The notes: a model not told the origin generated them from the letters alone. 50,244 bases of DNA from Candidatus Limnocylindria bacterium (GCA_050692015.1 JBOGTE010000002.1:1-50244), one strand, 5' to 3'; counted from the stretch's first letter, positions 1 through 34,234 are shown. Numbers and translations: made by a program.

Positions 1-2
1 CG

Positions 3-1292: not shown

Positions 1293-1404
1293 GCCGCGTT
1301 GCTCGCCGGCAGCGAACGCCTCACCACCTACCCGGTGCTGGCGTCAGCCCGACGATGCAGCGCGAGGCCGCCGCGGCCTTCGATGCGGTGCCCGGAGCGG
1401 AGCG

Positions 1405-2196
1405 ATGATCACCAGCCTCGGTCGTCAGGCCACGGCCCGTTCGCTTGATACTCGTCGGATGGACGAACCTCGAGACTTGACCGTGATCTTCGTCGCCGAG
1501 TCGTTCGTCTCCGACCTCTTTAATCCAAACGAATGGCCCGCTCCGACCAAAGACATCGTGTCATCCTGCGCCAGCGAGTTGACAGTTCTCAGGCATTCCG
1601 CCGTGCGAATCGGCGAACTATGCGCAAACCGCCAAGTGCTGACCGACGGATACGCGCGCTCCCTTGAGCAGCAATGGCGAGTGGGTCAGTGGGATTGGAC
1701 GCGGGCCACGTACTTCGCTCAGGTGCCCGAACTTCACCTCACCATCGAGGCCTTCTTCTCAAGCCTCAAGGCCCTGCTGGATCTCATCTCACAGATGTAC
1801 AGGAGTGAGGATGTGGTAACGCCTTCGCTCGACGGATTTCACCGGCAGGGCGCCGTCTATGGCGGCAAGGTACTCAACGTCTTGAAGAGGAACACTGTCA
1901 AAGGCCGAGAAGAGGTGGCGTCCGCGATCTCTGATGTCATTTTGGCCGCGAAGGCAGAGTGGATTGATGACGCGATTCAGGCACGGGACGACCTGGTGCA
2001 TCCCCCTCGAGGTGCCGGGCAGCTGATGTTTGTCCTGAGGCTTGCGGAGCTAGAAGGCCGCCTTGAGATCGTCGAGGTCCTGCCGCCGTCGATCGCGGGG
2101 ACGCCGATCGACGAGTACGCGATTCGCGGCGTGGAGCGAATGACATCGTTTGGCAGAGCAGTGCTTGACCTTCTGAAGCCCGAGAGGGCGGCTTGA
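1405..2196 (+). CDS. Hypothetical protein of foreign (lower-GC) origin with a C-terminal R-x4-H (HEPN-like) motif
   Basis: 263-aa ORF in a roughly 58% GC block against about 70% around it. GGAGCGGAGCG lies ahead of the ATG, and a 17-codon uORF overlaps the start by ATGA (1405-1408). The motif ARDDLVH near the C-terminus is an R-x4-H pattern. No Walker or other recognisable catalytic motif. Confidence 0.6.
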   Translation: MITSLGRQATARSLDTRRMDEPRDLTVIFVAESFVSDLFNPNEWPAPTKDIVSSCASELTVLRHSAVRIGELCANRQVLTDGYARSLEQQWRVGQWDWTRATYFAQVPELHLTIEAFFSSLKALLDLISQMYRSEDVVTPSLDGFHRQGAVYGGKVLNVLKRNTVKGREEVASAISDVILAAKAEWIDDAIQARDDLVHPPRGAGQLMFVLRLAELEGRLEIVEVLPPSIAGTPIDEYAIRGVERMTSFGRAVLDLLKPERAA

Positions 2197-2209
2197 GCGG
2201 CCCGCGCGA

Positions 2210-2230
2210 CTCCGGACCCTGTCCCCGGAG
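2210..2230 (+). terminator. GC-rich hairpin directly after the 1405-2196 ORF (possible terminator)
   Basis: CTCCGGACcctGTCC-CCGGAG forms a stem of about 10 bp and begins 14 nt after the TGA stop. The downstream T-tract is weak (ttgcgcg). Confidence 0.3.
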
Positions 2231-2355
2231 TTGCGCGATGATCCTGACCCCTGCGAGTACCCCAGTTGCACGGAACGGACCCCGACCCAGCGGTACGGAT
2301 CGGGCCGAGTCTCCCAATGTTGGGTCGCATCGGGACGCTGCGGACTCATCCGGTG

Positions 2356-2414
2356 ACGCCTTGAAAACCGCTGAGGCCGCAAGGCCTCCGTGGGTTCGAA
2401 TCCCACCCCCTCCG
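2356..2414 (+). other. tRNA-Ser(UGA) 3'-half fragment, putative attachment-site remnant of an integrated element
   Basis: Anticodon loop cTTGAAAa (UGA), a long variable arm GAGGCCgcaaGGCCTC, T-arm GTGGGttcgaatCCCAC and acceptor 3' strand CCCCTCC-G are all present. The matching 5' acceptor strand (GGAGGGG) and a D-arm are absent upstream, so this is not a complete tRNA. The 3' end resembles tRNA-Ser(GGA) at 49871-49953 but is not identical. Confidence 0.6.
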
Positions 2415-2541
2415 CAGTCTAGAAATGACGCGGAAGGCCCGCTCTTAACTGGAGAGGGCCAGAGCAAGCGAGTTAGGCGAGCCAGGCGCCGAAGGGAACC
2501 GTGACGTTAGTGAAGAGAACAAGCGCCGGGCGATCGACCTC

Positions 2542-3057
2542 ATGGGCGAAGAGTGCCGCGCGATCGAGGCGCTGTTCCGGTCGCTTTCAGCATCGCAGCT
2601 CGACCTTCCTGTCTTCGGCGAGGGCCAGGGCTGGCGGGTAAGGGACATCCCCGCACATCTCGCGCTCTGGCAGTGGGTCGCGACCCGGGTCGCCGAGAAG
2701 GTCAGCGAGCGTGGCCAGCTCCCTGACACGCCGGACTGGGACATCTGGGCGGGGATCGAGACGCCGACGGATGAGCTCAACGACGAGAACTTCCGCGACT
2801 GGAGGGATCGTCCGGTCGAGGACGCGCTGGGCCGTCTGGCGTACGTTCACGCCGAGATGATCCGTGCCGTCGAGCGATTGACGCCTGAACAGATCGCGTC
2901 CGGGACGGCGCTGCCCGATGAGCTTCAGCCGTTCTTGCGGGCGCCGGGCGTCAGGCACATCCGCGCGCATCGAAAGCAGATCGAGTCCGCCCTCGGCGGG
3001 ACCGAGATCCTGAGGGAGGGCGGCTCGGCCACGAGCCGTCCGTCGGGCGTCACTTAA
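2542..3057 (+). CDS. DinB/YfiT-like four-helix-bundle protein (ClbS/DfsB DUF1706-like or MDMPI_N-like)
   Basis: 171 aa. WRVRDIPAHLALWQW resembles the 'W-x-v-kD-vlaHL-x-W' signature of this superfamily. The size is typical (about 170 aa). Confidence 0.45.
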   Translation: MGEECRAIEALFRSLSASQLDLPVFGEGQGWRVRDIPAHLALWQWVATRVAEKVSERGQLPDTPDWDIWAGIETPTDELNDENFRDWRDRPVEDALGRLAYVHAEMIRAVERLTPEQIASGTALPDELQPFLRAPGVRHIRAHRKQIESALGGTEILREGGSATSRPSGVT

Positions 3058-3071
3058 CGTAGAATGACTGC

Positions 3072-3299
3072 ATGACCATTAAAATGACCGCTTCGGCCGC
3101 CAAGGCGAAGATCCTCTCCCTGCTCGACGACGTTTCCGCCGGCCAGGAGGTCGAGATAACCAAGCACGGCCGCGTGGTCGCGAGGCTAGTGCCGGCTACC
3201 GGGCCGCACGCTCTCAAGGGGGCCCTCGTCGGTGTCGCTATGACTGCTGACAAGGAAGAGGATCTGTTCGCCACCGGAGCGAGCTGGGACCTGCCATAA
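3072..3299 (+). CDS. Type II antitoxin, Phd/YefM family
   Basis: MTIKMTASAAKAKILSLLDDVSAGQEVEITKHGRVVARLVP is a textbook Phd/YefM N-terminus. TAGAAT lies 7 nt upstream of the ATG, so the transcript is probably leaderless. Confidence 0.85.
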   Translation: MTIKMTASAAKAKILSLLDDVSAGQEVEITKHGRVVARLVPATGPHALKGALVGVAMTADKEEDLFATGASWDLP

Positions 3300-3304
3300 G
3301 CACG

Positions 3305-3688
3305 GTCGTACTCGACAGCCACGTCGTCCACTGGTGGTCGGCCGAGCCCGCTCGGATCAGCGCCGCCGCCAGCAGGGCCATCAGCGGGGCGGATGAGCTC
3401 GCGGTCGCCGACATCTCGTGGTTCGAGCTCGCCTGGCTTGCTCGACATGAGCGGATCGTCGTGACGATCCCGATCACATACTGGCTTCGGCAGCTGGCAG
3501 CCCAGATCCACTCGATCCCCGTAACGCCGGCGATCGCGGCAACGGCGGTCGCCCTGCCATCGTCGTTCCCGGGGGATCCAGCCGATCGGCTGATCTACGC
3601 GACGGCGATCGAGAATGGTTGGCGGCTCATCACGAAAGACCGCGGGCTGCGCTCCCACCGCCACCCTCATCCCGTGGCCCTCTGGTAG
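3305..3688 (+). CDS. vapC: Type II toxin VapC (PIN domain). N-terminal boundary uncertain: no canonical start codon
   Basis: The frame reads VVLDSHVVHWW...ADISWFE...RLIYATAIENGWRLITKD, which has the PIN acidic residues. It stays open back to 3251, but the only in-frame start-like codons upstream of the conserved N-terminus are CTG (3284) and ATA (3296-98, ATAA-overlapping the antitoxin stop). The first GTG, at 3455, would delete the PIN N-terminus. Confidence 0.6.
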   Translation, partial: VVLDSHVVHWWSAEPARISAAASRAISGADELAVADISWFELAWLARHERIVVTIPITYWLRQLAAQIHSIPVTPAIAATAVALPSSFPGDPADRLIYATAIENGWRLITKDRGLRSHRHPHPVALW

Positions 3689-3759
3689 GCGATCACGCGA
3701 GGCCTATCGCGCGCCTGCACTCGCAGGCCGTCCATTGACGGCGGTCTTGGCGATCCGGC

Positions 3760-4422
3760 CTAGGCGGTCGGCTGCGAAGGCAGGCCACCGTTCGTACGGT
3801 GGTCGACCAAGATCTGGTGAGCGACCTCGTCGCTCACGTCCGAGAAGTCCTCGTACCACACTGACAGCGAGGTGATGCCGGGCACGACCTCCAGGATCAC
3901 GACGTCATCCGCCTCCTGATCGAAGGCGTCGACCACGGCGGCTTTGGCCACGGGGACGGCGAATAGGAGCCGCCGCGGCTGCCGCAGACGCAGCTCACCC
4001 AACGCGGCACGCGCGACCAGGCCATCGATCACGCCCTCGGCCACGAGTATCGCGGTGCGACCCTCCAGCTCGACCGCGGGCCGATCCCCTCTAAGGCGGC
4101 GCTCTTCCTGCTCCGCCTCCTCCGACGCCCGCTGGGCCAGGGTGTCGAGGTCGTCGCCCGGTCGTAGCGCGCGGACCATGACCTCGTCCACCACTCTGAT
4201 CCCGCCGGGAGCCGCGGCGCCGATGACCACGTCGTGACGCGCGGACGCGGTGAGTGCGCGGGCGACGGCGATGTCCAGAGGAGCATCCATCTCCCGGGCC
4301 ACTTCGGCGGCCACAACGAGTCCTCCGCTGAGAAGCCCGACGATCGCCGGATGGTCGTCGCGGAAGGGGGCCAGAGCCTCCGTTAGGCGTTCGCCAGCTT
4401 CGCGCCGGTCGCGGAACTTCAT
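3760..4422 (-). CDS. Phosphoribosyltransferase-domain protein
   Basis: MKFRDRREAGERLTEAL...AIVGLLSGGLVVAAEVA matches the predicted-PRTase family N-terminus. The start was chosen at the MKF ATG (4422), not at the ORF-track extension up to 4719. Confidence 0.7.
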   Translation of the reverse strand: MKFRDRREAGERLTEALAPFRDDHPAIVGLLSGGLVVAAEVAREMDAPLDIAVARALTASARHDVVIGAAAPGGIRVVDEVMVRALRPGDDLDTLAQRASEEAEQEERRLRGDRPAVELEGRTAILVAEGVIDGLVARAALGELRLRQPRRLLFAVPVAKAAVVDAFDQEADDVVILEVVPGITSLSVWYEDFSDVSDEVAHQILVDHRTNGGLPSQPTA

Positions 4423-4490
4423 CGCCGTGACTGTACAGGCCGCTCGAGGCTGAGCGCCGACGTGATCGCCCCGTGCGATAGGGTCGGCGG

Positions 4491-5141
4491 GTGGAGAGAG
4501 TGGTCCTCTTCGACGTCGACAACACGCTCCTCGACAACGATCGCCTGAAAGCAGATCTCGCGGCCTCCCTCGCCTATGACCTCGGGGCCGGTCCGGCCGC
4601 TGACTTCGCGCGACTCTATGAGCAGGTGCGCATCGACGAGGACGGAGTGGTCGACTATCCGGAGACGCTGCGTCGGTTCGCGGCGAGGCACCCGGCGCTC
4701 GCGCACCGAGCGAACGCACTCATCAATGGGGTCGCGTTCGACGCTTACGTCTATCCGGGAGCGCTACGCGTCATCGCCGACTGCCGGGCGACGGGCAGGC
4801 CGGTGGTGCTCTCGGACGGCGACCCGATCTACCAGGTGGCGAAGATCGAGCGATCGGGTATCGCGGCCGCCGTTGCCGGCGACGTGCTCGTCTTCGACCA
4901 CAAGGAACGGCATGTCGATGAGGTCATTGGGCGCTTTCCTGCGTCTCGCTACTTGATGGTCGAGGACAAGGCGCCGACGCTCGCGCTGATGAAGGCGCAG
5001 CTCGGCGAACGACTGGTCACGGTGCACGTCAGACAGGGCCACTACGCCACCGAGGAGACTGCCGGCTTCGTCCCCGACTTCTCCATCGCTTCGGTCGGCG
5101 ACCTCGCGCCCGCGCGCATGATGGCAGGCGAGCTTGGCTGA
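4491..5141 (+). CDS. HAD-family hydrolase
   Basis: N-terminal FDVDNTLL is the DxDxT motif. Confidence 0.75.
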   Translation: MERVVLFDVDNTLLDNDRLKADLAASLAYDLGAGPAADFARLYEQVRIDEDGVVDYPETLRRFAARHPALAHRANALINGVAFDAYVYPGALRVIADCRATGRPVVLSDGDPIYQVAKIERSGIAAAVAGDVLVFDHKERHVDEVIGRFPASRYLMVEDKAPTLALMKAQLGERLVTVHVRQGHYATEETAGFVPDFSIASVGDLAPARMMAGELG

Positions 5142-5318
5142 GATCGTCTCAGCGCACCTCGTTGCGCGCCAGTTCCTGGGGTCGGGCCTGATCTCGTGAC
5201 TTGCGTTGCAGCTGCTTGCACCTGATCGCATTAAGAGTTGGCATCAAGTCTTCGCCGCGAGGCTCTTGGCACCGCCGGCGCTGATGCCACGATAGTGGGA
5301 TGATCGTATGGTCAACGT

Positions 5319-5630
5319 GTGCCACTGAAAAAGCGCCTCTCCGTCACGATCGACCCCGGGCTGCTCGCGGCCGGCCGAGTCGCGGTATCGCAAGGGCGCG
5401 CCGAGAATCTCAGCGCCTGGGTGAGCGAAGCGCTGCGCCGACAGATGGAGAACGACCGCCGTCTGGCGGCCCTCGACCGTGCCATCGGCGAGTACGAGGC
5501 GGAGCACGGCGTGATCACCGAGGAAGAGATGGATGAAGCCACACGCCGGCTTCGAGCGAGGGCCATCGTGATCCGCCCGTCGCCGAAACGGCGGACGGCC
5601 GCGGGCGGTCGCCGGCGGGGTGCCGCCTGA
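5319..5630 (+). CDS. Ribbon-helix-helix (CopG/VapB-like) antitoxin
   Basis: MPLKKRLSVTIDPGLLAAGRVAV...LSAWVSEALRRQ is an RHH N-terminus. The start is GTG, TATGGT lies 6 nt upstream (probably leaderless), and TGGCA/TGCCA repeats sit upstream. Confidence 0.7.
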   Translation: MPLKKRLSVTIDPGLLAAGRVAVSQGRAENLSAWVSEALRRQMENDRRLAALDRAIGEYEAEHGVITEEEMDEATRRLRARAIVIRPSPKRRTAAGGRRRGAA

Positions 5631-6118
5631 GCCTGGTCCTTGACGCGGGCGCGCTGGTCGCCCTGGAGCGCGGCGACCGGACCGTCATCGCGGCGGTCAA
5701 GAAGGAGCGATCCGGGGGCCGCTTCCCGGTGACCCACGGAGGGGTCGTCGGACAAGTCTGGCGAGGCGGCCGCGGACGCCAGGCGCGGCTCGCCAGCTTC
5801 CTACCCGGCTTCGACGTCCGTGCCCTCGACCGAGATCTCGGCCTTAGGGCGGGCGTCCTGCTGGGCAGAGCTGGCAGCGCCGACGTGATCGATGCCGCGC
5901 TTGTCGTCCTGGCCAAAGATGGCGACGAGATCCTGACCTCGGATCCCGAGGACCTGCGCGATCTGGCGATGGCCGCGAGCGCTCACGTTGAGCTGACGCC
6001 GGTCCAGACATCGCGCCGAGCGGCGGCTCGATCCCGCGCCCCGCGTCGACCGTCCGGTGCTACTGATCGATCTCCGCTACGGTCGGCGCGGTGGGGCACC
6101 CCTTCCGCATCGGCGTGA
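5627..6118 (+). CDS. vapC: VapC-like PIN toxin. The only start-like codon is CTG overlapping the antitoxin stop (CTGA)
   Basis: The frame reads LSLVLDAGALVALERGD...VIDAALVVLAKDGDEILTSDPEDLRDLA, PIN-like. There is no ATG, GTG or TTG in frame between the upstream stop (5534) and 5729. Confidence 0.55.
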   Translation: MSLVLDAGALVALERGDRTVIAAVKKERSGGRFPVTHGGVVGQVWRGGRGRQARLASFLPGFDVRALDRDLGLRAGVLLGRAGSADVIDAALVVLAKDGDEILTSDPEDLRDLAMAASAHVELTPVQTSRRAAARSRAPRRPSGATDRSPLRSARWGTPSASA

Positions 6119-10174: not shown

Positions 10175-10264
10175 GGAGAGGTCGCATAGTTGGCCTAGTG
10201 CGGCAGGTTGCTAACCTGCTATAGGGAGTTTTCCCTATCGAGGGTTCGAATCCCTCCCTCTCCG
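10175..10264 (+). tRNA. tRNA-Ser (anticodon GCT)
   Basis: 90 nt. Acceptor GGAGAGG/CCTCTCC, anticodon loop tTGCTAa, long variable arm, T-loop GGTTCGAATCC. Confidence 0.9.
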
Positions 10265-10292
10265 CCGTCGCGGTAGCCTCTCAGCCGTTCCC

Positions 10293-10751
10293 ATGAAAAC
10301 GGAGCGCTCCTACAACGAGCACAACACCCGCGAGCGCGAGCGGCTGCGCGCCCTCGTCGAGCGCCTCAGCGATGACGACCTGCGGCGCAAGGTCAACGAG
10401 AGCTGGACGGTCGCGGCTGTGCTCGGCCACGTCGCCTTCTGGGATGCCCGCCAGCTGTACCTGGTGGACAAGCTCGAGCGCGGCCTGGCCTTCACCCCCG
10501 CCGAGATCGAGCCGCACCCGCCGGACTGGATCAACGACTCCACGCGTCCGCTGATCGATGCGCTCGATCCGCGCGCGGCCGCCGACCTCGCACTTCGGAT
10601 CGCGGAGCAGATCGACGCGAAGATCGCCGCGCTCCCGCCCGACCTCGCGGCACACACCTGGCCGACGGACCCGGAAAGCCTGGTCAACCCCTTGCGCGCC
10701 GCGCACCGCGGCGAGCACCTCGACGAGATCGAGGCCGCCCTGGCCCGCTGA
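10293..10751 (+). CDS. DinB-like (DUF664-type) four-helix-bundle protein
   Basis: WTVAAVLGHVAFWD with a C-terminal HRGEHLDEI. His-rich DinB/YfiT-like pattern. Confidence 0.5.
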   Translation: MKTERSYNEHNTRERERLRALVERLSDDDLRRKVNESWTVAAVLGHVAFWDARQLYLVDKLERGLAFTPAEIEPHPPDWINDSTRPLIDALDPRAAADLALRIAEQIDAKIAALPPDLAAHTWPTDPESLVNPLRAAHRGEHLDEIEAALAR

Positions 10752-12131: not shown

Positions 12132-13649
12132 GTGCTCGTGCGAACCAGTCCCACGGTCCCGCACCTCCTCGGCGTGCTCCTCCTGGTGTCGTTCTTCAAC
12201 GTCAGTGCGTCAGCACCACGGTCAAGCGAGCCACTGGACGGTCCGTCGCCGGAAGGGCTCGATGCGGCGGAGGCGCAGGCCTGGGGGCCGACGCCCTCGA
12301 ACCCGCTCAGCTGCGTGCAGCGCGTCGATGTCGCCGGGCTCGATCAGGTCGTCGATCTGAGCTGGGCGCCGGGCGGATCGAAGCTCGCGCTCACCCGGGT
12401 CGTCACCTCGCCGTCGGCGCGGACCATCACCGGGTACGAGGAGGACCCCTTCCTCGCCGTCCTGGACCTCGCTACCGGCAAGGCGGAAGACCTCGGGGCC
12501 GGAGCCCGCGCGCGCTGGTCGGCCTCGGGCGATCTCCTGGCCTTCTGGCGCGGCGGCCGCCTCTACATCCACAGGGGGACGGAGAGGGTCACGGTCATCG
12601 ACTCGACCGTTCCGGACGTCCGCTGGGTGGGTGAGGAGCTGGTGTACTTCTTCCAGGACCAGATCCGCGGCTGGTCCGAGCGCGGCGATCGCCTCATCTC
12701 GACCGTCGGCTGGGACCACATGCCGCGGTTCCCCAAGGACGACACCTACTTCAGCGGCGACGGCGCGCTCTTCATCGTCACGCGCTACTCCATGGACGGC
12801 AGCGCCTACCGCTACATCGGGCAGACCGCGACCGGGCACGTCGCACCGCTCGAGACCGCCGGCACGACCTACACGGAGTGGGCTCCCACCGGCCAGACCC
12901 TCCTGGTGCGCTCGGACCACGACGTCGAGCTGCGCGGCCCTGGGGGAGTGCGCACCGTGGCGCCGGTCTCGGCCTTCCCCGGAGCGGTCCACGGCTGGAC
13001 CCCAGACGGCAAGGGCCTGCTGATGGGCGGGGTGACCGCGACGGTCCCGTCCGGCGCCGCGTTCGACCGGTTCGCGGTCTGGGAAGGCGGCGCCGTGGTC
13101 GCCACGGCGACGCTGCCGAACCTGATCGGCGGCCGCGCCTTCAGTCCCGACGGGCGGTACTTCGCGGGGATCGCGCGGGCCGGGGTCCACGAGACCGCCC
13201 TCGAGATCTACCGCTGCGGCACGCGCCTCGTCCGGGCGGCGGAGCGCGCGGATCCCGTCTCGCGTGCCCGGGAGGCCCGGATCGCGGGCGACGGCCGCCG
13301 CCTGGTCCGGCCGGTCTCCGGCTTCATCTCCCAGTTCCTCCAGGGGAGCCACACCGGCGTGGACATCGCGGCCCCGTTCGGCGCGATCATCGCCGCCGCC
13401 GACGAGGGCGAGGTGACGCACGTGGGGTGGGTGCCGGTCGGCGGCCGCGCCGTGTGTGTGACGCACAGCGCCGGCCTCGAGAGCTGCTACTACCACACGT
13501 CGCTGTCGTACGTGACCGTCGGGCAGCGTGTCGCCCGCGGTCAGCCCATCGCCGCCATCGGCATGAGCGGGCTCACGACGGGCGCCCACGTCCACTGGGA
13601 AGTGAAGCAGGACGGCCGCATCGTCGATCCGCTCGAGGTGCGTCGCTAG
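12132..13649 (+). CDS. M23-family metallopeptidase with N-terminal beta-propeller (TolB-like) region
   Basis: C-terminal HTGVDIAAPFGAIIAAADEGEV...HVHWEV (LytM/M23 HxxxD...HxH), N-terminal signal-like segment, and repeated xSPDG/W-rich strands. Confidence 0.75.
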   Translation: MLVRTSPTVPHLLGVLLLVSFFNVSASAPRSSEPLDGPSPEGLDAAEAQAWGPTPSNPLSCVQRVDVAGLDQVVDLSWAPGGSKLALTRVVTSPSARTITGYEEDPFLAVLDLATGKAEDLGAGARARWSASGDLLAFWRGGRLYIHRGTERVTVIDSTVPDVRWVGEELVYFFQDQIRGWSERGDRLISTVGWDHMPRFPKDDTYFSGDGALFIVTRYSMDGSAYRYIGQTATGHVAPLETAGTTYTEWAPTGQTLLVRSDHDVELRGPGGVRTVAPVSAFPGAVHGWTPDGKGLLMGGVTATVPSGAAFDRFAVWEGGAVVATATLPNLIGGRAFSPDGRYFAGIARAGVHETALEIYRCGTRLVRAAERADPVSRAREARIAGDGRRLVRPVSGFISQFLQGSHTGVDIAAPFGAIIAAADEGEVTHVGWVPVGGRAVCVTHSAGLESCYYHTSLSYVTVGQRVARGQPIAAIGMSGLTTGAHVHWEVKQDGRIVDPLEVRR

Positions 13650-13700
13650 CGGACCTCGACGCGCGTCGCGCGGAGCGCTCCATGATCTAGTGTCGCGACG

Positions 13701-14273
13701 GTGCCGCCCTCGCTCCTCATCACGGTCATTGGCAAGAGCGCCCGCGACCCGAACGATCCCGTCTCGCCCGAGGCGCTCGCCGCAGCGGAGGAAGTGGGTC
13801 GCCTGATCGCGGAGGCCGGGGCGACCGTAGTGAGCGGCGGGTTATCCGGCGTGATGGAGGCGGTCAGCCGCGGCGCGAAGGGCGCCGGTGGCCTGACGAT
13901 CGGGATCCTGCCCGGCTTCGACAAGCGCGAGGCGAACCGGTACGTCGACATACCGATCACAACTGGGATGGGCTACATGCGGAACACGCTGAACGTCCGC
14001 GTTGCCGACGCGGTGATCATGATCAGCGGCGGCATCGGCACGCTCAACGAGCTGACCGTGGCGTACGAGGACAAGCCGACAGTCATCCTCGAGGGCACCG
14101 GAGGCTGGGCCGATCGCATGCGCGAGGTCGCGTACAAGGGCGTGCACCTCGACGAGGGCGGCCGCAGCGTCCTTCGGTACGCCTCGACTCCGAAGGAAGC
14201 CGTCGATCTTGCGCTGGAGCTGGCGGCGGCGGACGAGCGCTCGCGCCGCGCTGGCGACGCGGAGTTCCGCTGA
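13701..14273 (+). CDS. LOG-family / TIGR00725 Rossmann-fold nucleotide-binding protein
   Basis: GGLSGVMEAVSRGAKGAGG and SGGIGTLNELT motifs. Confidence 0.75.
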   Translation: MPPSLLITVIGKSARDPNDPVSPEALAAAEEVGRLIAEAGATVVSGGLSGVMEAVSRGAKGAGGLTIGILPGFDKREANRYVDIPITTGMGYMRNTLNVRVADAVIMISGGIGTLNELTVAYEDKPTVILEGTGGWADRMREVAYKGVHLDEGGRSVLRYASTPKEAVDLALELAAADERSRRAGDAEFR

Positions 14274-14323
14274 GGGTCAGCGCTCGGTCGCGCGGGCTTC
14301 CCTTTCGGACCTCAGCGCGGGCA

Positions 14324-15613
14324 TCACCAGCGGCCGATGACGCCCTCGGCCCAGGCCGCCGCGGCGAAGAGCCGCCGGTCGTCGCCCGGGGCGGTCACTA
14401 GCTGCAGCCCCAGCGGCAGGCCCGAGGGGCCGCGCCCCGCCGGGACGGTCACCGCGGGCGCGCCGACGAGCGTCCAGCGCGAGCAGAAGACCGGGTCGCC
14501 GGTGGTCTCCGGCGTCGGCGCCTCGCCCGTCGCGGGGAGGGTCAGCACCGCGTCGTACGGCGCCGCCCAGTCGGCGAAGGTCGCCACCAGCCGGTCGCGC
14601 TCGAGGAGTGCCTCCCGGTAGGTCGCGTCGCCGACCGTCTCGCCCTCGGCAACGAGCGCCCGCGCCACCTCGCTCGCCAGCGAAGGCTCTCGCCGGATCG
14701 CCGTGCCGATCGTGCCGACGCTCTCGCGGGCCATGATCGTCCGGAGGACGGGGACGGCCCCTTCGATGCCCTTCGGAAGCGCGGGCCACTCGATCGCGCG
14801 CCCGACCGCGGCCAGCGCGTCGATCGTCAGCTGGAAGCGCTGCCGCGCCGCCTCACTCGCGCGCTCCCAGTCCCTGGTGCGGATCGCCGCAAAGCGCGGC
14901 GGGGCGGTGGCGGGTCCAGCCCACCACCGATCGAGCGGCTCGCGCGCCATGGCGGCGCAGAGTAGTGCCGCCCCTTCGACGGTCCTGGTGAACGTCCCGG
15001 CGTGGTCGAGCGTCGGCGCGAACGGCATGACACCTTCGAGAGGGATCCGGCCGTACGTCGGCTTGACCCCTACGACGCCGCAGAACGCGGCGGGCCTGAT
15101 GACGGACCCGTTGGTCTGGCTGCCGATCGCTGCCGGGATCATCCCGGCCGCGACAGCGGCGGCGGAGCCCATCGAGGACCCGCCGGGCGTGCGCGAGCGA
15201 TCGTGGGGGTTGGTGGTCGGACCTGGCTGGAAGAAGGCCAGCTCCGTCGTGACCGTCTTCCCGATCACGATCGCGCCCGCAGCCTCTAGCGCCTCGACCG
15301 CGGCGGCGCTCCGGTCCGGCACCCGGCCGCGGTCGAGGGGCGTGCCGTTCTCGGTCGGGATGCCCGCCGTGTCGTAGATGTCCTTGACGCCCACCGGCAC
15401 GCCGTGCAGGAGGCCGGGCTCGGATCCACTCGCGAGCGCGCGGTCCTTCTCGTCCGCCAGGCGCAGCGCGCGGTCCCGGTCGAGCCACGCGAACGCCCGC
15501 ACCGCCGGCTCGCGCTCGTCGTACTTCGCGAGGGCGGCCAGAACGAGCGCGCGGCTGGTCGTCAGGCGCTGGCGGACCGCGCGCGCGGCGGCCGGGAGGT
15601 CTTCGAGGTACAT
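14324..15613 (-). CDS. Amidase (amidase-signature family)
   Basis: GGSSMGSAAAVAAG signature with the Ser-cisSer-Lys context. Start taken at MYLEDLP (15613). The alternative start at 15679 would overlap the upstream exonuclease gene by 31 nt. Confidence 0.8.
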   Translation of the reverse strand: MYLEDLPAAARAVRQRLTTSRALVLAALAKYDEREPAVRAFAWLDRDRALRLADEKDRALASGSEPGLLHGVPVGVKDIYDTAGIPTENGTPLDRGRVPDRSAAAVEALEAAGAIVIGKTVTTELAFFQPGPTTNPHDRSRTPGGSSMGSAAAVAAGMIPAAIGSQTNGSVIRPAAFCGVVGVKPTYGRIPLEGVMPFAPTLDHAGTFTRTVEGAALLCAAMAREPLDRWWAGPATAPPRFAAIRTRDWERASEAARQRFQLTIDALAAVGRAIEWPALPKGIEGAVPVLRTIMARESVGTIGTAIRREPSLASEVARALVAEGETVGDATYREALLERDRLVATFADWAAPYDAVLTLPATGEAPTPETTGDPVFCSRWTLVGAPAVTVPAGRGPSGLPLGLQLVTAPGDDRRLFAAAAWAEGVIGRW

Positions 15614-15648
15614 GTCGCGCGCATGGTGACGCGTGGCGTCCGGCCGCG

Positions 15649-16863
15649 TCAGCTTGCGGGTCGCAGGTCTCGTCGCCATCTCGCCCGTAACAGTCTGCGC
15701 AGCCGCGCCTCGGCCTGCCTCCGCCAGCCCGGCGCGCCGGCACCCAGGGCCAGCAGCGTCTCGAGCATCGCGATCGCGCGGTCGGGATCGCCCCGGCGCT
15801 CGAGCGCGCGGGCGAAGGGCAGCGAGGCCCGCACCCGCGTGACCGGATCGCCATCGACGTACGCGCTCTCGTAGCAGCAGAACGCCGCCGTGGTCTCGCC
15901 CTCGCGCTCGAAGACCCGCGCGAGCGCCAGAGCGGCCGGGCCGTGGTCGGGCGCGCGCCCGCCTCGCGCCAGGATCACCGCGCTGGCAACGCGGTCCGCG
16001 ATCCGGACCAGGGAGATGACGTCCTGCGCGTTGTGCCGAAGCACCGGCTCCAGCAGCCGTTCGTCGCGCGTGCGGAGGTAGCCGAAGTAGCGCTCCGGGA
16101 TCAGCGCTCCGGGGATGTCGTCGGTCCGCGGCTCGTCCAGTACCGACGCCTCGATCTGGCGGAGCGTCGTCGAGCCGAAGCGGTCCTTCCAGAGCCGCCG
16201 CGCGGGGTGGAGCAGGTCGAGGTGGCTCTCGTCCACGGACAGCTCGGCGCGCAGCGCCAGCACGACGCGCGTGCGCAGGATGGGCAGGTCGAACGACTTG
16301 CCGTTGTACGACGCGCAAGCGCGGAACGCGGCCATCTCCTGGTGGATCGCCGCGACGAAGCGCCGCTCCGCGCCGAGGTCCGAGAGCACGTGCTGCCGGA
16401 GCACGACCTCGCCAGCGGAGACGCGCGCCGTCCCGAGCATGAACACGTACGTTCCGGTGCCTCCCGAGAGGCCCGTGGTCTCCGTGTCGAGGAAGAGGAT
16501 GTCCTCCCAGCGGCGCGGCGCCTCGCCGCGCAGGCCCAGGTGCGCAAGGGTGAGTGGGTCCGGGTCGGATCGGCCGACGACCTCCAGCCCCAAGCCGTTG
16601 AGCTCGTAGCGCTCTTCGACGACGTTCCAGCCGGCGCCCGGCGACGTTGCCTCGGGTCGGCCCGTCCCTGTGCCTCGGTCGCTCCTCGCCTCTCGCTTGA
16701 TGCTGGGCTCGGGGTCGAAAGCGCCGGCTCGTCGCTCCCTCGCGGGCTCGGGCCTCCCCTCGACCTCGCCGGGCGCCGGCATGCCGACGCTCGCCTCCGC
16801 TCCTTGGAGGACCGCGCGCGCGGCCGCGACGCGCGCCAGCCGGTCGCGGAGCGCGAGGGTCAT
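15649..16863 (-). CDS. mrfB: RNase H-like 3'-5' exonuclease (YprB/MrfB-like, PF13482) with C-terminal TPR-like region
   Basis: ILFLDTETTGLSGGTGTYVFMLG is the DEDD-type exonuclease motif I typical of YprB. The ATG at 16863 overlaps the helicase stop in an ATGA, so the two are translationally coupled. Confidence 0.7.
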   Translation of the reverse strand: MTLALRDRLARVAAARAVLQGAEASVGMPAPGEVEGRPEPARERRAGAFDPEPSIKREARSDRGTGTGRPEATSPGAGWNVVEERYELNGLGLEVVGRSDPDPLTLAHLGLRGEAPRRWEDILFLDTETTGLSGGTGTYVFMLGTARVSAGEVVLRQHVLSDLGAERRFVAAIHQEMAAFRACASYNGKSFDLPILRTRVVLALRAELSVDESHLDLLHPARRLWKDRFGSTTLRQIEASVLDEPRTDDIPGALIPERYFGYLRTRDERLLEPVLRHNAQDVISLVRIADRVASAVILARGGRAPDHGPAALALARVFEREGETTAAFCCYESAYVDGDPVTRVRASLPFARALERRGDPDRAIAMLETLLALGAGAPGWRRQAEARLRRLLRARWRRDLRPAS

Positions 16864-19157
16864 GCGATCAGCTCGGCGACGGCCGCCTTCACGTCGTGGC
16901 CGATGGCGTACGCCGGCCCCACGCACGACGGGCACCCGGTCTCGCAGTCGCACGCGGCGACGTGCTCCCGCGCACGCTCGAGGAGCGCTTCCGACGAGCG
17001 GAAAAGCCGCTCCGAGAAGCCCACGCCGCCGGGAGTCATGTCGAAGAGGTAGAGCGTCGGGCGCTCGGTGTGCGGGGAGCGGACCTCGACCGAGAGGCCG
17101 AGGTCATGGGGGTCGCACATCAGGAAGAGCGGCGCGAGGCCGTGAAGCAGGTTGCCCAGACCCGCCAGAGCCACCTCGACGCGCTCGCGCGGCCAGCCCG
17201 GCGTCGCGCCGTCGGCCAGCGAGAGCCAGTACGACGTCGTCTGTAGCTCCTGCTCGGGGAGGTGGATCTTCCCCCAGCCGACGTTCTCGTGCGTGTACAT
17301 CGTCAGCTTCTTGTAGACCGTGGCCAGGGCGCTCACGAGGACCTCGCCGTGCGACCGTGTGAAGCGCTCGCGGCCCGAGCGCTTCGGCAGAGCGTCCGTC
17401 GCGAACGAATCGAGCACGCGGATGCGCACCGCGAGGCCCGCGTCGGTGTAGTGGTCCACCTTCACCTCGGTCACGTAGGCCTTGGCGTTCTCCCAGTCCA
17501 GGCGCTCCACCTGGTACTGGCGCGACTCGTGAAGGTAGATGGCCTGCTCGTGCACGAGCACCGGGGCGGCGAAGCGGTCCACCTCGCCGATCACCCGCGT
17601 GTGGCCCCGGGTCGTATCGACGATCACGACGTTGTCGTTGCTGGCGGTGCGCAGCGACATCGCCTCGGCGGGGAAGGCCTGCGCCGACCAGTGGTAGCGG
17701 CCGTCGGCCTCGTGCAGGATGCCCTGCTCGTCGAGGTAGGAGAGGACGCCGGGCGTGTCCTCCGTGCCGAAGCGCTCGGTCCGCTCGAAGGGCAGCTCGA
17801 AGGCGCCGCACTTGAGGTGCCCCACCAGGACGTGGAGGTTGTCGGGGTTGACCAGGCCCTGCTCGGGCGGCCTGCGCAAGACATGGTCGGGGTGCTGCAC
17901 GACGTACTGGTCCGTCGGCGACGACGTGGCGACGAGGAAGGCGGCCGAGAGCTCGCCGCGGCGGCCGGCGCGGCCCATGCGCTGCCACGTCGAGGCGACG
18001 GTGCCCGGGTAGCCCACCAGCACCGCGGCCTGGAGCGCGCCGATGTCGATGCCCAGCTCCAGGGCGTTGGTGGAGACGACGCCGCGCACCGTCCCCTCGC
18101 GCAGGCCCCGCTCGATGGCCCGCCGCTCGCTGGGCAGGTAGCCGCCGCGATAGCCGCGGACGAGGTCGCCCGGCCACTGCGGCTCCGGGAACCGGGAGCG
18201 CAGGTAGGTGAGCAGGAGCTCGGTCTGCACGCGCGAGCGCGTGAAGCAGATGGTCTGGATGCCGGACGCCAGGAGAGTCGCTGCGATGTCGCGGCCGGAG
18301 AGCAGCGCGCTCCTGCGGATGCCGAGGGAGGCGTTCACCACCGGCGGCTGCACGAACGCGATGACCTTCTCGCCCTGCGGCGCTCCGGACTCGTCGATCA
18401 GCACGACGTCGTCCTCGACGTGGCGGCGGGCCAGCTCCTCGGGGTTCGCGATGGTCGCGGACGTGCAGATGAAGGTGGGGTGCGAGCCGTAGAAGGCGCA
18501 GATGCGCCGCAGCCTGCGCAGCACGTTCGCCACATTGCTGCCGAAGACGCCGCGGTACGTGTGCAGCTCGTCCAGCACGACGTAGCGGAGGTCCTCGAAG
18601 AGCTTCACCCACTTGGTGTGGTGGGGGAGGATCCCCGTGTGGAGCATGTCCGGGTTCGTGATGACCACGTGCCCGGCCGAGCGGACCTGGGCGCGCGCCT
18701 GCGGCGGCGTGTCGCCGTCGTAGGTGTACGTCTTGAGCTCGATCTCCATCTCCGTGGAGAGCCGCTCGAGCTCGGCCAGCTGGTCCTGCGCCAGCGCCTT
18801 GGTGGGGAAGATGAAGAGCGCCCGCGCGGACGGGTCCTTGGCGATGGCGTGCAGGACGGGGAGGTCGTAGCAGAGCGTCTTGCCCGAGGCGGTCGGCGTG
18901 ACCACGACGACGTTCCGCTCCGCGTGCGCCGCCTCGAGCGCCGCGGCCTGGTGCGAGTAGAGCGCCTCGATCCCGCGCCGGCGCAGCGAGCGGACGATCC
19001 GCTCGTCCAGCCACACGGGGAAGGGCGCGTAGCGGGGCGCCTTCGCAGGAAGGCGCTCCCACCTCGTGACCAGCGAGGCGAACTCGGGGTCCCGCTCGAA
19101 GGAGTCGAGGATCTGCTCCAGGCTGGTGCGGGCGGGGAATGGAACAGCAGTTCGCAT
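16860..19157 (-). CDS. mrfA: DEAD/DEAH-box helicase with C-terminal DUF1998 four-Cys domain (YprA/MrfA-like)
   Basis: Walker A VVTPTASGKT, DExH box VLDELHTY, helicase C motifs, and C-terminal CDCETGCPSC as in DUF1998. Start taken at MRTAVPF (19157), not the ORF-track 19352. Confidence 0.8.
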   Translation of the reverse strand: MRTAVPFPARTSLEQILDSFERDPEFASLVTRWERLPAKAPRYAPFPVWLDERIVRSLRRRGIEALYSHQAAALEAAHAERNVVVVTPTASGKTLCYDLPVLHAIAKDPSARALFIFPTKALAQDQLAELERLSTEMEIELKTYTYDGDTPPQARAQVRSAGHVVITNPDMLHTGILPHHTKWVKLFEDLRYVVLDELHTYRGVFGSNVANVLRRLRRICAFYGSHPTFICTSATIANPEELARRHVEDDVVLIDESGAPQGEKVIAFVQPPVVNASLGIRRSALLSGRDIAATLLASGIQTICFTRSRVQTELLLTYLRSRFPEPQWPGDLVRGYRGGYLPSERRAIERGLREGTVRGVVSTNALELGIDIGALQAAVLVGYPGTVASTWQRMGRAGRRGELSAAFLVATSSPTDQYVVQHPDHVLRRPPEQGLVNPDNLHVLVGHLKCGAFELPFERTERFGTEDTPGVLSYLDEQGILHEADGRYHWSAQAFPAEAMSLRTASNDNVVIVDTTRGHTRVIGEVDRFAAPVLVHEQAIYLHESRQYQVERLDWENAKAYVTEVKVDHYTDAGLAVRIRVLDSFATDALPKRSGRERFTRSHGEVLVSALATVYKKLTMYTHENVGWGKIHLPEQELQTTSYWLSLADGATPGWPRERVEVALAGLGNLLHGLAPLFLMCDPHDLGLSVEVRSPHTERPTLYLFDMTPGGVGFSERLFRSSEALLERAREHVAACDCETGCPSCVGPAYAIGHDVKAAVAELIA
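19142..19153. promoter_or_regulatory. GAAC-N4-GTTC palindrome (LexA/Cheo-type SOS box), box 1
   Basis: tGGAACagcaGTTCGc lies immediately inside the first codons of the helicase gene (start codon at 19155-19157). Confidence 0.5.
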
Positions 19158-19166
19158 AGGCGCGCC

Positions 19167-19195
19167 ACGATATGGAACGCCCGTTCGGAGGTCAA
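19167..19195 (-). promoter_or_regulatory. Predicted promoter of the mrfA-like operon: -35 TTGACC / 17 nt / -10 TATCGT, with SOS box 2 (GAACgcccGTTC, 19175-19186) in the spacer
   Basis: Minus strand reads TTGACCtccGAACgggcGTTCcaTATCGT, then 9 nt, then ATG. A LexA operator between -35 and -10 is the classic SOS-promoter layout. Confidence 0.5.
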
Positions 19196-19270
19196 GAGAG
19201 GCCCCACACTGCTGGGACGGCGCGGGCGGGCCGTCCCTAGTCCAGCATGCCGCCGTTAGGTAGAGGTGGA

Positions 19271-20965
19271 ATGCACTCCGACCGTCTGAGCGGCTCCGAC
19301 GTCGAGCGCGCGGCCCTTCGCCTGCGGCTCGCCGCGGCCGCTCTCGCGACAACGCTCATCCTTCTGGGTGGCGACGCTCCCGCGGCCGTCCCGCTCGTCC
19401 TGCTCGGCTACGTGCTCGTGGCCGTGGCGGCCAGGTTCGGCACGCCGCTTCTGACGGGAGCGCCCGCCGGCGTCGCGGTCATCGGCGCGATGGGGCTCGA
19501 CATCGCCGCGACCGCGGGCCTCGTCGCCGCCCTGCCTATCGACCGCCCGGCGTGGATGCTCTTCCTGTTCCCGATCGGGCACGGCGCGCTCCGCTTCGGG
19601 CCGCTCGGCGCGGCCGCCGCCGCGGCCATCGCCATCGTGCTCGTGGACGTCACCATCGCGCTCCGTCTGTCCGAGGCCGAGGCTATCCAGCTCTGGCCGC
19701 TGCAGCTGCTGGTGGCGGCCGCCCTCGTGGCCGCGGAGCTCGCGCGGCTCCGCGAGCGGGACGAGCGCGAGCACGACATGCTGCGGCGCCGCGCGGCCGC
19801 GCGGGAGGACCTGTCGGCCGGCGTCGCCTCGGCGCACGTCCTGCGCTCCGCGACCGAGCACCTCTCCCGGCTGCCCGGCGTGACCGCCGCCTGGGCCTGG
19901 GTCCAGAAGGACGACGGGATACTGGTCGAGCACGAGCGGGGCGACCTTCCGGCACCGCTGCGCGAGGTGACGAGCCGCGCGGCCGAGATGCCTTCGCGCG
20001 GCAGGGTCGTCGCCTCCGAGCACGTCGTGCCGTCGCTCCTCGAGGGGCGCGTCATCGGGCTGCATGACGATCCCTACACCGCGGTGGGCGTCATCCTCGA
20101 CCCGGCCGGTACGGACGCGGAGCGGCGTGACGCGCTCATGCTCGACATCGCGGACGCTTCGGCGCGGGCCCTCGCGGCGGCGGTGGAGCGCGAGCGCGCC
20201 GAGCGGGCTGTCGGGGAGCTGCGGGTCGCCCTCGAGAGCGTTCGCGGCCAGCTGCGCGCGAAGGAGGAGGCGGTCGCGACGGCGGTCCACGAGCTCCGGA
20301 CCCCTCTCACCAGCGTGGGCGGCTACGCGCAGATCGTCTCCCGCCACCTCGACACCATGCAGCGGCAGGTCGCGCAGCTGGCGCGGCTGATCTCGGACCT
20401 CCAGCCGGCGGCCGCGCGCTCGGCGGAGCTGACCGTGGCGCCGCTGGACCTCCGCGACCTGGTGCGCGGGGCCGTGTCCCGCGTGCGCGTCCTGTCGGAC
20501 GCCAACGTCGAGCTGGACGAGCCTCGAGCTCCGATCGTCCTAACGGTGGACGGCCCGCGCATCGGCCAGGTGATCGACAACCTCCTCGGGAACGCCGTGA
20601 AGTACTCGCCCGCGCCGGCGAGGATCGCGGTCGGCCTGCGCGAGGAGGACGACAGCGTCCTGCTGACGGTCACGGACCAGGGGCGGGGCATCTCCGCCGA
20701 GGACCTGCCGCGCCTCTTTGAGCGCGGCTACCGCGCGGCGGACGACGTGCGCGGGCAGGGCCTGGGGCTCGCCGTCGTCCGCGAGGTGGTCGAGGCCCAC
20801 GGCGGCCGAGTGGGCGCGTCGAGCCCGGGCGAGGGCGCCGGCAGCACCTTCTGGATGGTGCTGCCCAGGGCCGCCCGGCCCGCGATCCCAGATGGCAACG
20901 GGGAGCGGCCGCCCGCGGCGGACGAAGGCGAGGCCGACCGCGTGCCGCGGGAGCCCGCGGGTTAG
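19271..20965 (+). CDS. Sensor histidine kinase (HisKA + HATPase_c), membrane-anchored. No adjacent response regulator
   Basis: N-terminal TM helices, H-box VHELRTPLTSV, N/G boxes (DNLLGNAVKYS, DQGRGI, GQGLGLAVV). An alternative start lies at 19247. Confidence 0.8.
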   Translation: MHSDRLSGSDVERAALRLRLAAAALATTLILLGGDAPAAVPLVLLGYVLVAVAARFGTPLLTGAPAGVAVIGAMGLDIAATAGLVAALPIDRPAWMLFLFPIGHGALRFGPLGAAAAAAIAIVLVDVTIALRLSEAEAIQLWPLQLLVAAALVAAELARLRERDEREHDMLRRRAAAREDLSAGVASAHVLRSATEHLSRLPGVTAAWAWVQKDDGILVEHERGDLPAPLREVTSRAAEMPSRGRVVASEHVVPSLLEGRVIGLHDDPYTAVGVILDPAGTDAERRDALMLDIADASARALAAAVERERAERAVGELRVALESVRGQLRAKEEAVATAVHELRTPLTSVGGYAQIVSRHLDTMQRQVAQLARLISDLQPAAARSAELTVAPLDLRDLVRGAVSRVRVLSDANVELDEPRAPIVLTVDGPRIGQVIDNLLGNAVKYSPAPARIAVGLREEDDSVLLTVTDQGRGISAEDLPRLFERGYRAADDVRGQGLGLAVVREVVEAHGGRVGASSPGEGAGSTFWMVLPRAARPAIPDGNGERPPAADEGEADRVPREPAG

Positions 20966-33391: not shown

Positions 33392-33464
33392 GAGCCCGTA
33401 GCTCAGCGGATAGAGCACGACGCTACGGACGTCGGGGTCGCAGGTTCGATTCCTGTCGGGCTCG
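33392..33464 (+). tRNA. tRNA-Arg (anticodon ACG)
   Basis: Acceptor GAGCCCG/CGGGCTC, anticodon loop cTACGGa, T-loop GGTTCGATTCC. TAGAAT lies 7 nt upstream. Confidence 0.85.
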
Positions 33465-34140
33465 CTGCTTCTCTACTGTCCATAGCGTCCCAAGGTCGAG
33501 GACCGGACCAGTTGCCTGGGTCTTCGAGCACCGTCAACGCGAGTCGCCGGCGATGTGTCGCGCGACGATGATCGTTCGCACAGCGCACCTCGCACTTCGC
33601 GATCTCGTCGAGGATCCGTTGCCACGGGTGCCCGTTGTGGACCAGTGTGCTGACATCGGCTGTCTTATCGCGAATGTGGTCGAAGTCGAGGACAATCGGA
33701 TCGTTCTCGCCGCAATCGACACAAGGATGTTCGGCCAGGTACTCCCGGATCAGACGTAGGTTCCGCTCGACATAGATCCTCTGGTTACGGCGGATCCGCA
33801 CCATCTGGGTATCGTGAAGACGCTGATGGCGTTCCGCGTTGTACGCGGCGATGCACGCCCTGCACCACGACTGCAACACGCTCGATCCACGGAACCGCCG
33901 CTGAAACGCTTCTGCCGGCTTCATCTCAGCGCAACGCCGGCAGGGGTACATCTCGCGTCGACCGATCACACGGGTCGAGCGGGAGGGGTTGACCGACCAG
34001 GGCCACCGCGCCCGCTGGTAGTCGCGCCGGCAGCTGCTGCACGTACTCCTGCGCCGACCGGTGTCCGCGCGGAGATCGAACTCATCCACCGGCTTGACCT
34101 CGCCGCATGAACGGCATCTCTGAACTGCGACATCGTCCAT
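33403..34140 (-). CDS. HNH-type endonuclease-like protein with N-terminal Cys-x2-Cys zinc-ribbon repeats (low-GC, likely mobile-element remnant)
   Basis: C-x2-C pairs (CRSCGEV...CSSCRRD, CRRCAEM...CRACIAAY) followed by HPCVDCGENDPIVLDFDHIRDK...VRCANDH (HNH C-x2-C...DH...N...C-x-N-x-H). Local GC about 55%. The last roughly 20 codons overlap tRNA-Arg(ACG) on the opposite strand, so the true C-terminus is uncertain. Confidence 0.6.
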   Translation of the reverse strand: MDDVAVQRCRSCGEVKPVDEFDLRADTGRRRSTCSSCRRDYQRARWPWSVNPSRSTRVIGRREMYPCRRCAEMKPAEAFQRRFRGSSVLQSWCRACIAAYNAERHQRLHDTQMVRIRRNQRIYVERNLRLIREYLAEHPCVDCGENDPIVLDFDHIRDKTADVSTLVHNGHPWQRILDEIAKCEVRCANDHRRATHRRRLALTVLEDPGNWSGPRPWDAMDSREAASPTGIEPATPTSVASCSIR

Positions 34141-34170: not shown

Positions 34171-34188
34171 AGGTGTTCACGAACACCT
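34171..34188. promoter_or_regulatory. 18-bp perfect palindrome AGGTGTTCacGAACACCT (operator-like) in the HNH gene promoter
   Basis: Sits immediately downstream of a minus-strand promoter (-35 TTGTCA / 17 nt / -10 TAGAAC) and upstream of a strong SD (GGAGGA, 5 nt before ATG 34140). Confidence 0.45.
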
Positions 34189-34234
34189 GTTCTACCAGGT
34201 CGGCGGCGGCTTGACAAGAGTTCAGCCAGGCGGC

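Follow-up and report, generated by a model that had tools for sequence, protein, structure and literature searches.

Gene content and predicted promoter of the operon

The window analyzed here is the whole 50,244-bp stretch of DNA, which belongs to a metagenome-assembled genome (MAG) of Candidatus Limnocylindria bacterium (Chloroflexota, class Limnocylindria), an uncultured soil bacterium. Within a region of 72–75% G+C, three consecutive minus-strand genes encode an mrfA/yprA-type superfamily 2 DExH helicase of 765 amino acids (16860..19157), an mrfB/yprB-type DEDDh 3′-5′ exonuclease of 404 amino acids (15649..16863), and an amidase-signature enzyme of 429 amino acids (14324..15613, alternative start 15679), the probable third gene of the operon. 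Two perfect GAAC-N4-GTTC palindromes, candidate operators of the SOS repressor LexA, are located at the promoter and start of the helicase gene, and the regulation that they suggest is the main subject of this analysis. The NCBI record of the helicase, MGH2376925.1, reads [quoted passage not shown] and the exonuclease is likewise assigned to a Limnocylindria MAG; MGH2376924.1 is another protein recorded for the MAG of this contig.

A preliminary description of this DNA had read the first gene as a 765-residue DExH helicase with a C-terminal four-Cys DUF1998 domain, the second as an ATGA-coupled RNase-H-like exonuclease carrying LFLDTETTGL, and the two together as the equivalent of the Bacillus subtilis pair YprA/YprB (MrfAB), and these assignments were borne out. 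The helicase matched the Pfam families DEAD (E 1.6e-34), Helicase_C (E 5e-15), WHD_HRQ1 (E 8e-9), and PF09369 MZB (E 5.4e-22, residues 668–746), the last being the domain formerly named DUF1998, and its translation contained the core motifs TPTASGKT (Walker A) and VLDELH. The four Cys of the MZB domain lie in CDCETGCPSC, which aligned to CPCHDGCPSC of 6ZNP, the crystal-structure sequence of B. subtilis YprA/MrfA, and the overall match to 6ZNP covered residues 29–749 against 20–733 (E 2.5e-256, 856 bits). The ATG of the exonuclease gene overlaps the helicase TGA, and the protein matched PF13482 RNase_H_2 (E 8.6e-36) with the motif ILFLDTETTGL. In the alignment with the MrfB core 8UN9 (E 8.9e-33), FLDTETTGL (DTE), YNGKSFD, and HNAQD coincided with the catalytic motifs of MrfB, so that the DEDDh motifs are kept; the C-terminal matches to TPR_12, TPR_14, and TPR_7 were weak (E ~1e-3, all under the curated cut-offs). 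By homology, from which their activities are predicted, the helicase and the exonuclease are an MrfA/MrfB-type repair pair.

On the minus strand, the region ahead of the helicase reads TTGACC-tcc-GAACgggcGTTC-ca-TATCGT-ggcgcgcct-ATG-c-GAACtgctGTTC-ca. The combination TTGACC-17-TATCGT, with the predicted −35 hexamer at 19190..19195 and the predicted −10 hexamer at 19167..19172, was the sole sigma-70-like match of a consensus scan within 14000–19600 (one found against 0.1 expected). Box 1, GAACgggcGTTC on the coding strand, lies inside the −35/−10 spacer (19175..19186), as had been proposed, and box 2, GAACtgctGTTC on the coding strand, occupies 19142..19153, which corresponds to +4 to +15 of the coding sequence. 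Box 2 had been placed over codons 2–5; the core itself was found, and it runs from codon 2 into codon 6. The sequence earlier quoted for it, GAACagcaGTTC, is correct as a plus-strand reading. Since the −10 hexamer ends only 9 nt before the start codon and a Shine–Dalgarno sequence is absent, the helicase mRNA is probably leaderless. Perfect GAAC-N4-GTTC cores are rare in the window, with three found against 0.39 expected and a count of three reached in only one of 100 shuffles. Two of the three are the boxes at the helicase promoter, 33 bp apart, and the third is located in another promoter region (34181–34192).

Conservation of the two boxes

To follow the boxes across species, a scan with one genome per species was used, which returned 79 loci with helicase relatives, most of them labelled Limnocylindria or Chloroflexota. 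The mrfB gene was directly downstream of mrfA in every sufficiently long locus, including homologues of 35–42% identity. For footprinting, 60 distinct promoters were retained, whose helicases were 78–96% identical to the query in amino acid sequence. In these promoters, the sequence upstream of the −35 hexamer was unconserved, TTGAC was conserved, the GAAC and GTTC arms of box 1 were invariant, and (C)ATATCGT followed. Box 1 was perfect in 59 of the 60 orthologues and box 2 in 55, with both perfect in 54. The N4 spacer of box 1 was variable but of the form R-N-N-Y, with a purine at position 1 and a pyrimidine at position 4 in 60/60, which fits the Gram-positive LexA consensus CGAACRNRYGTTYC (PMC2248561). 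The preliminary description had also noted an extended flank common to both boxes (tGGAAC-N4-GTTCG). This is true in the window, where it reads cGAAC-N4-GTTCca; the flank of box 2 is not conserved among the orthologues, 54 of which have G on its 3′ side.

The distance between the box centers ranged from 31 to 35 bp; therefore, strict helical phasing is not maintained. From the end of the −10 hexamer to the start codon there were 7–12 nt in 59 orthologues, again without a Shine–Dalgarno sequence. The gene upstream of the operon differs between genomes, a histidine-kinase gene being confined to the window and its closest relatives. Thus, the boxes belong to the helicase gene and travel with it. 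The helicase loci together contained 134 perfect cores in 803 kb, about 125 of which were at the helicase promoter or start. Among the stray cores, L019:6932 (in a DUF1015 gene), L017:11119 (in an opposite-strand gene), and L020:8125 (within the helicase coding sequence by context) were set aside as coding coincidences.

Outside this set, the nearest outgroups L054 and L077, with helicases of about 73% identity, kept both boxes and had no amidase gene. A perfect box was present at the mrfA start in one Bacillota MAG (L070) and one Armatimonadota MAG (L075), the mrfA homologues of Ktedonobacterales and Tepidiformaceae had sites with one mismatch, and five other distant homologues had no box at mrfA. 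Judged from these sites, the predicted LexA control of mrfA recurs without being universal, and it predates the link to the amidase in this lineage.

One promoter region of the set carried an insertion. In L029, a 530-amino acid TnpB/IS605-OrfB-like open reading frame (ORF; 4403–5995, Cas12f1-like TNB domain, E 2e-7) was found between the LexA-box promoter and mrfA. It starts with ATG-t-cGAACagacGTTCg and so has a box of its own at its start. Its overlap with the mrfA start is 4 nt, and box 2 of mrfA is retained. A similar junction beside mrfA was seen at the upstream contig edge of L046.

LexA in Limnocylindria and proposed control of the operon

In Firmicutes and Actinobacteria, the LexA motif is GAAC-N4-GTTC, and variants of it occur in Chloroflexi (PMC4951493). 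Neither lexA nor recA was present among the approximately 40 ORFs of the window (Pfam), and tblastn with LexA of Escherichia coli and B. subtilis and with E. coli RecA found no match in the window or the 79 helicase loci. A LexA profile built from B. subtilis and Mycobacterium tuberculosis retrieved only mycobacterial LexA from a set of 5.8 billion proteins. When representative sequences were searched with a mycobacterial LexA, the clusters of 10 high-GC representatives yielded hardly any taxonomic assignment. One representative, P0239, lay in an actinobacterial-looking locus with a DUF222-HNH neighbor and was dropped, and P0433 and P0437, considered as the lexA of the window organism, matched other species. 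The lexA genes of the class were reached by scanning metagenome DNA for the LexA peptide GYPP[ST]xREI as encoded by high-GC codons, which yielded 120 lexA loci that were then sorted into groups. A tblastn comparison of the genes flanking these loci with the Limnocylindria loci gave no informative match.

One of these groups, with L096 and L152, has the promoter TTGACA-N3-GAAC-N4-GTTC-N2/3-(−10), the same design as the helicase promoter. In a homologue search, relatives of the L096 group (77–96% identity) were named [quoted passage not shown] The L096 protein has the domains LexA_DNA_bind and Peptidase_S24, the AAG cleavage site, the G(K/D)SM serine, and the lysine (ATLKRF). The contigs of these relatives provided 11 distinct Limnocylindria lexA promoters, all of which contained a single perfect box in the −35/−10 spacer, with the start codon 6–9 nt after the −10 hexamer, and 27 of the 29 perfect cores in the lexA loci (129 kb) were at lexA or dnaB promoters. 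By whole-genome shotgun (WGS) prefix, five lexA loci could be paired with helicase loci of the same MAG: JBHEML (L204/L061), JBBQVQ (L205/L013), DASWCU (L209/L011), DATDNP (L212/L038), and DAIDAP (L213/L081). Since they share a WGS prefix, the lexA and helicase promoters of each pair coexist in one genome. A sixth lexA contig and a helicase locus came from one metagenome (Ga0194121) and are probably from the same MAG.

The mrfA-mrfB-amidase operon is very probably under LexA control and inducible by DNA damage. The same box occupies the same position at all lexA promoters of the class, an arrangement that is the hallmark of an autoregulated lexA. LexA/SOS control had been proposed in the preliminary description together with a look for the motif at lexA. 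At the level of the class, and in genomes other than that of the window, the footprinted boxes and the 11 lexA promoters agree with that proposal, as far as sequence comparison can support it.

In the mechanism that we propose, LexA dimers would occupy both operators in the undamaged cell. At box 1, LexA would fill the 17-bp spacer and compete with sigma/RNA polymerase. Since only 9 nt separate the −10 hexamer from the start codon, box 2 would lie at the start of the probably leaderless transcript, and LexA bound there would block open-complex formation or promoter escape. Upon DNA damage, RecA filaments would stimulate the self-cleavage of LexA, both operators would clear, and the operon would be transcribed. 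By homology with B. subtilis, MrfA (3′-5′ helicase) and MrfB (3′-5′ DEDDh exonuclease) would then remove bulky adducts of the mitomycin type, or intrastrand crosslinks, by a route independent of UvrABC, with the amidase co-expressed. Two operators, compared with the single one at lexA, would be expected, by analogy with other SOS systems, to give tighter repression and later induction.

Conceivably, the palindromes serve some regulator other than LexA or belong to the promoter structure itself, with the operon outside the SOS response. As box 1 is embedded in the promoter, its conservation could be due in part to promoter function. However, the 12-bp palindrome is placed identically in every lexA promoter of the class and also stands ahead of a Y-family polymerase operon, its arms, spacing, and R-N-N-Y spacer fit the known LexA consensus, and box 2 is conserved despite the codon bias even though the promoter hexamers do not include it, which makes this explanation very unlikely. 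Box 2 might instead be kept since the protein needs an N-terminal peptide M-R-T-x-V-R. Residues R2, T3, and V5 are indeed conserved, residue 4 being free (A, D, S, G, P, and others), and helicases of the YprA family possess a structural N-terminal strand (PMC12458937). Selection on the protein would nevertheless permit CGC/CGG and GTC/GTG, yet codon 2 was CGA or AGA in 60/60 orthologues, compared with 5.6% of the remaining Arg codons of the gene, and codon 5 was GTT in 56/60, compared with 1.6% of the Val codons elsewhere. Moreover, the alignment with B. subtilis MrfA starts only at residue 29. We regard the peptide explanation as very improbable. Since these rare codons are fixed in a gene whose G+C content at third codon positions (GC3) is 0.92, the sequence pattern indicates that box 2 is held by selection on DNA against the codon bias, for which protein constraint cannot account.

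A further alternative concerns the helicase itself, which could belong to an anti-phage defense system (DISARM, Dpd, Druantia, and others) and not to DNA repair. The YprA family is common to both functions, and the presence of an MrfB-type exonuclease partner defines its repair branch (PMC12458937). The PADLOC models DruE, BrxH, DrmA, DpdF/J, and SngC did match the helicase core, with E values from 1e-18 to 1e-46, but these matches covered only part of the models or protein and fell far short of the 856 bits reached over the full length with MrfA. No PADLOC model was matched by the exonuclease, the amidase, or an HNH-like ORF elsewhere in the window, and PADLOC found no defense partner genes (DrmB/C, Dpd genes, DruH, and the like) among the partners and neighbors. 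The cluster is bordered by a convergent SLOG-family gene at its end and the divergent histidine-kinase gene upstream, and its other neighbors are housekeeping genes according to the Pfam annotation of the window ORFs. Since only the helicase core was matched, and only partially, with no matches for the partners, the helicase is assigned to the repair branch (PMC12458937), and a defense function is scarcely probable.

Several observations weigh against LexA control of the operon. The promoter TTGACC-17-TATCGT and the leaderless start are predictions based on consensus, and one box was degenerate in 6 of the 60 orthologues, so dual occupancy is not indispensable. In the window, only 72 nt lie between box 1 and the start of the divergent histidine-kinase gene, which could share this operator. 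The lexA evidence closest to the window genome consists of the promoters of congeners, and no recA promoter was obtained from any Limnocylindria, the window and the 79 helicase loci containing no recA by tblastn. Finally, to our knowledge, mrfAB is not listed in the LexA regulon of B. subtilis, so this regulation is not a trait of the family.

Amidase, further regulon candidates, and comparison with known systems

The amidase had been described as following on the same strand with near-overlap, which agrees with the sequence (35-nt gap, or 31-nt overlap if ATG 15679 is used); the gene itself lies outside the interval originally described. It matched PF01425 over residues 23–415 (E 2.4e-73), and VGVKD, TPGGSSMGS, and GSQTNGSVIRP are visible, representing the amidase-signature domain with the GGSS motif and the Ser-cisSer-Lys triad. 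Its closest solved relative was malonamidase E2 (E 2e-54), with urethanases, GatA, and biuret hydrolase more distant, and no NCBIfam equivalog cut-off was reached. In nearly all sufficiently long Limnocylindria loci, the amidase gene followed mrfB on the same strand, and about 20 species have its start no more than about 25 nt from the mrfB stop or overlapping it (e.g., L006, with the mrfB end at 9404 and the start of the longest amidase ORF at 9332). In other species, a GNAT acetyltransferase gene or 0.6–2 kb lies between the two, gaps being present in about half of the loci; the GNAT gene of L033 (9428–10063) overlaps the mrfB stop. The amidase was not found at any mrfA homologue below 60% identity. 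By these gene orders, the amidase is a conserved and tightly packed third gene within Limnocylindria only. It is likely co-transcribed with mrfAB, and a role in DNA repair is only a possibility.

Whether the amidase takes part in repair was weighed against its being a passenger, packed behind mrfB and maybe co-transcribed, in which case the extended operon would be a genomic accident at the level of the class. We lean slightly toward the passenger explanation. The amidase is absent from L054 and L077, which keep both LexA boxes, and from all homologues of less than 60% identity, it is separated from mrfB in many species, and its closest characterized relatives act on small molecules; synteny at such relatedness is also weak functional evidence. 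On the other hand, its same-strand position after mrfB is kept in nearly every sufficiently long locus, the junction is tight or overlapping in about 20 species, and no site resembling a promoter or a terminator separates the two genes in the window. It is unlikely that the amidase genuinely belongs, as the third component, to an SOS-induced module for adduct repair. In such a module, as a hydrolase related to malonamidase and more distantly to urethanases (carbamate hydrolases), it would detoxify an amide- or carbamate-bearing genotoxin or trim an adduct or peptide remnant for excision by MrfAB. Mitomycins carry a C10 carbamate that is needed for cross-linking. If the amidase were such a component, then together with an AlkZ-like glycosylase encoded in the lexA operon it would point to a Limnocylindria SOS regulon specialized for crosslinkers among soil natural products.

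Boxes of the same type were found at further genes, the first being the lexA operon itself. In the Limnocylindria loci (L203–L228), lexA is followed by genes for an AlkZ-like DNA glycosylase (PF06224) and a Y-family polymerase, for example at L205 10001–12941 and L204 3305–6244. The AlkZ family comprises interstrand-crosslink glycosylases, and the Y-family polymerase is a classical SOS function. The alkZ gene is missing from the lexA operons of L203, L217–L221, and L227, and in all of the operons the promoter is of the leaderless type and contains one LexA box. Two tandem dnaB genes are located upstream of lexA, the first of which bears a LAGLIDADG intein in L213. In three species, a perfect GAAC-N4-GTTC abuts the −10 hexamer of the first dnaB (TAAATC, TAGACT, TATACT), with the start codon 6–7 nt further on (L205 4116–4140, L213 4380–4405, and L222 185–210). 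A replicative-helicase paralogue under putative LexA control is unusual.

The third perfect core of the window (34181..34192) lies about 45 nt upstream of the HNH-like ORF (34140..33403, minus strand), where it overlaps a −10-like TAGAAC and is followed by a GGAGGA Shine–Dalgarno sequence. The product is Cys-rich, with CxxC pairs and DFDHIRDK...CANDHRR, and had no Pfam, NCBIfam, or PADLOC match. The ORF has a GC3 of 0.73, and its 3′ end overlaps a tRNA-Arg gene on the other strand (33392–33465). A two-module homologue in L077 (4076..5047; region 3984–5047) has the promoter TTGACA-tac-GAACgtatGTTC-ga-TATGAT with a perfect box. Based on these sites, the HNH-like gene is probably another member of the LexA regulon, and it is possibly of mobile origin. 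The putative regulon of the class so far comprises lexA-alkZ-dinB, dnaB1, mrfA-mrfB-amidase, and the HNH-like gene.

The Limnocylindria pair resembles B. subtilis MrfAB in having two adjacent co-directional genes, a helicase with DExH, winged-helix, and four-Cys MZB parts that aligned over nearly the full length, and an exonuclease with a DEDDh core, a C-terminal TPR region (weak matches here), and a poorly conserved N-terminal extension, as described for MrfB (PMC11194089). In contrast to B. subtilis, for whose mrfAB no LexA control has been described, the Limnocylindria pair stands behind two LexA boxes, and its operon has the amidase as a third gene and probably a leaderless transcript. The preliminary description had stated that B. 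subtilis mrfAB was reported to be SOS-independent. No such report was found in the searchable literature; the paper on the MrfB structure describes the MrfAB pathway as independent of UvrABC nucleotide excision repair (PMC11194089); the mrfAB preprint mentions SOS once, in a different context, and never LexA. In the searchable literature, we found no report of LexA regulating mrfA, yprA, or DUF1998 genes in any organism.

With the GAAC-N4-GTTC (Cheo box) regulons of B. subtilis, M. tuberculosis, and Dehalococcoides ethenogenes, the Limnocylindria system shares the palindrome, its spacing, and an R-N-R-Y-like spacer preference, as well as operators that overlap the promoter, a predicted autoregulation of lexA, and a Y-family polymerase in the regulon. 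It differs from them in its predicted content (mrfAB-amidase, the AlkZ-like glycosylase in the lexA operon, the dnaB paralogue, and the HNH-like gene) and in the uniform box-in-spacer design with a leaderless start. Repair functions specific for mitomycin C also exist outside Firmicutes, such as MmcA/MmcB of Caulobacter crescentus, which are reportedly SOS-regulated. These factors have been described as specific for mitomycin C lesions (bioRxiv 10.1101/2022.06.10.495655). Unlike Limnocylindria MrfAB, they are unrelated proteins (glyoxalase-fold and endonuclease), and the LexA motif is GTTC-N7-GTTC. E. coli DinG is likewise a superfamily 2 repair helicase under LexA control (PMC12345164), but it belongs to the Fe-S XPD-like family, has 5′-3′ polarity, and lacks a coupled exonuclease gene.

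For Limnocylindria, a class of Chloroflexota that is abundant in soil and fresh water and uncultured, no SOS system has been described previously, and the present set of promoters provides a first outline of its putative regulon. It would link the MrfAB pathway to LexA control, a link for which we found no precedent in the searchable literature. Box 2 would offer a clean example of an operator within a coding sequence that overrides a strong codon bias. The expression of mrfAB is predicted to be a marker of DNA damage in the class, and the amidase and GNAT genes can be flagged as candidates for accessory factors of a poorly understood repair pathway. Nothing established is overturned by these results, since LexA regulons are known to vary and a LexA-controlled repair helicase–nuclease is expected; the proposed control is well supported but unsurprising.

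Other observations were made around these loci. The first 6 kb of the window (1–6000) had a lower G+C content (0.65–0.69 compared with about 0.72) and contained a weak UDG-like ORF and a DinB_2/MDMPI_N protein, and a second DinB_2 protein (10293–10751) adjoins a tRNA-Ser gene (10175–10266). None of these three genes had a LexA box. The other LexA groups from high-GC soil bacteria (L083–L202) differed in how their operators are arranged. In one large group, the only box, CGAACACACGTTCG, follows the −10 hexamer, often beside a tRNA-like gene; in another, two boxes precede the lexA start, partly at the edge of an apparent opposite-strand upstream gene, together with a GAAC-N4-GTTT site; and several myxobacteria-like groups are without any GAAC-N4-GTTC. 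Directly 3′ of the lexA operon, L213 contained a segment (13594–20087) with a serine recombinase, a D5_N/primase-helicase, and small ORFs without domains, which resembles an integrated mobile element. Four contigs with the Limnocylindria operon (L020, L034, L044, and L056, 80–96% amino acid identity) were found inside MAGs labelled Saccharimonadales, Bathyarchaeia, Acidiferrales, and Longimicrobiales, which probably reflects binning contamination in public assemblies.

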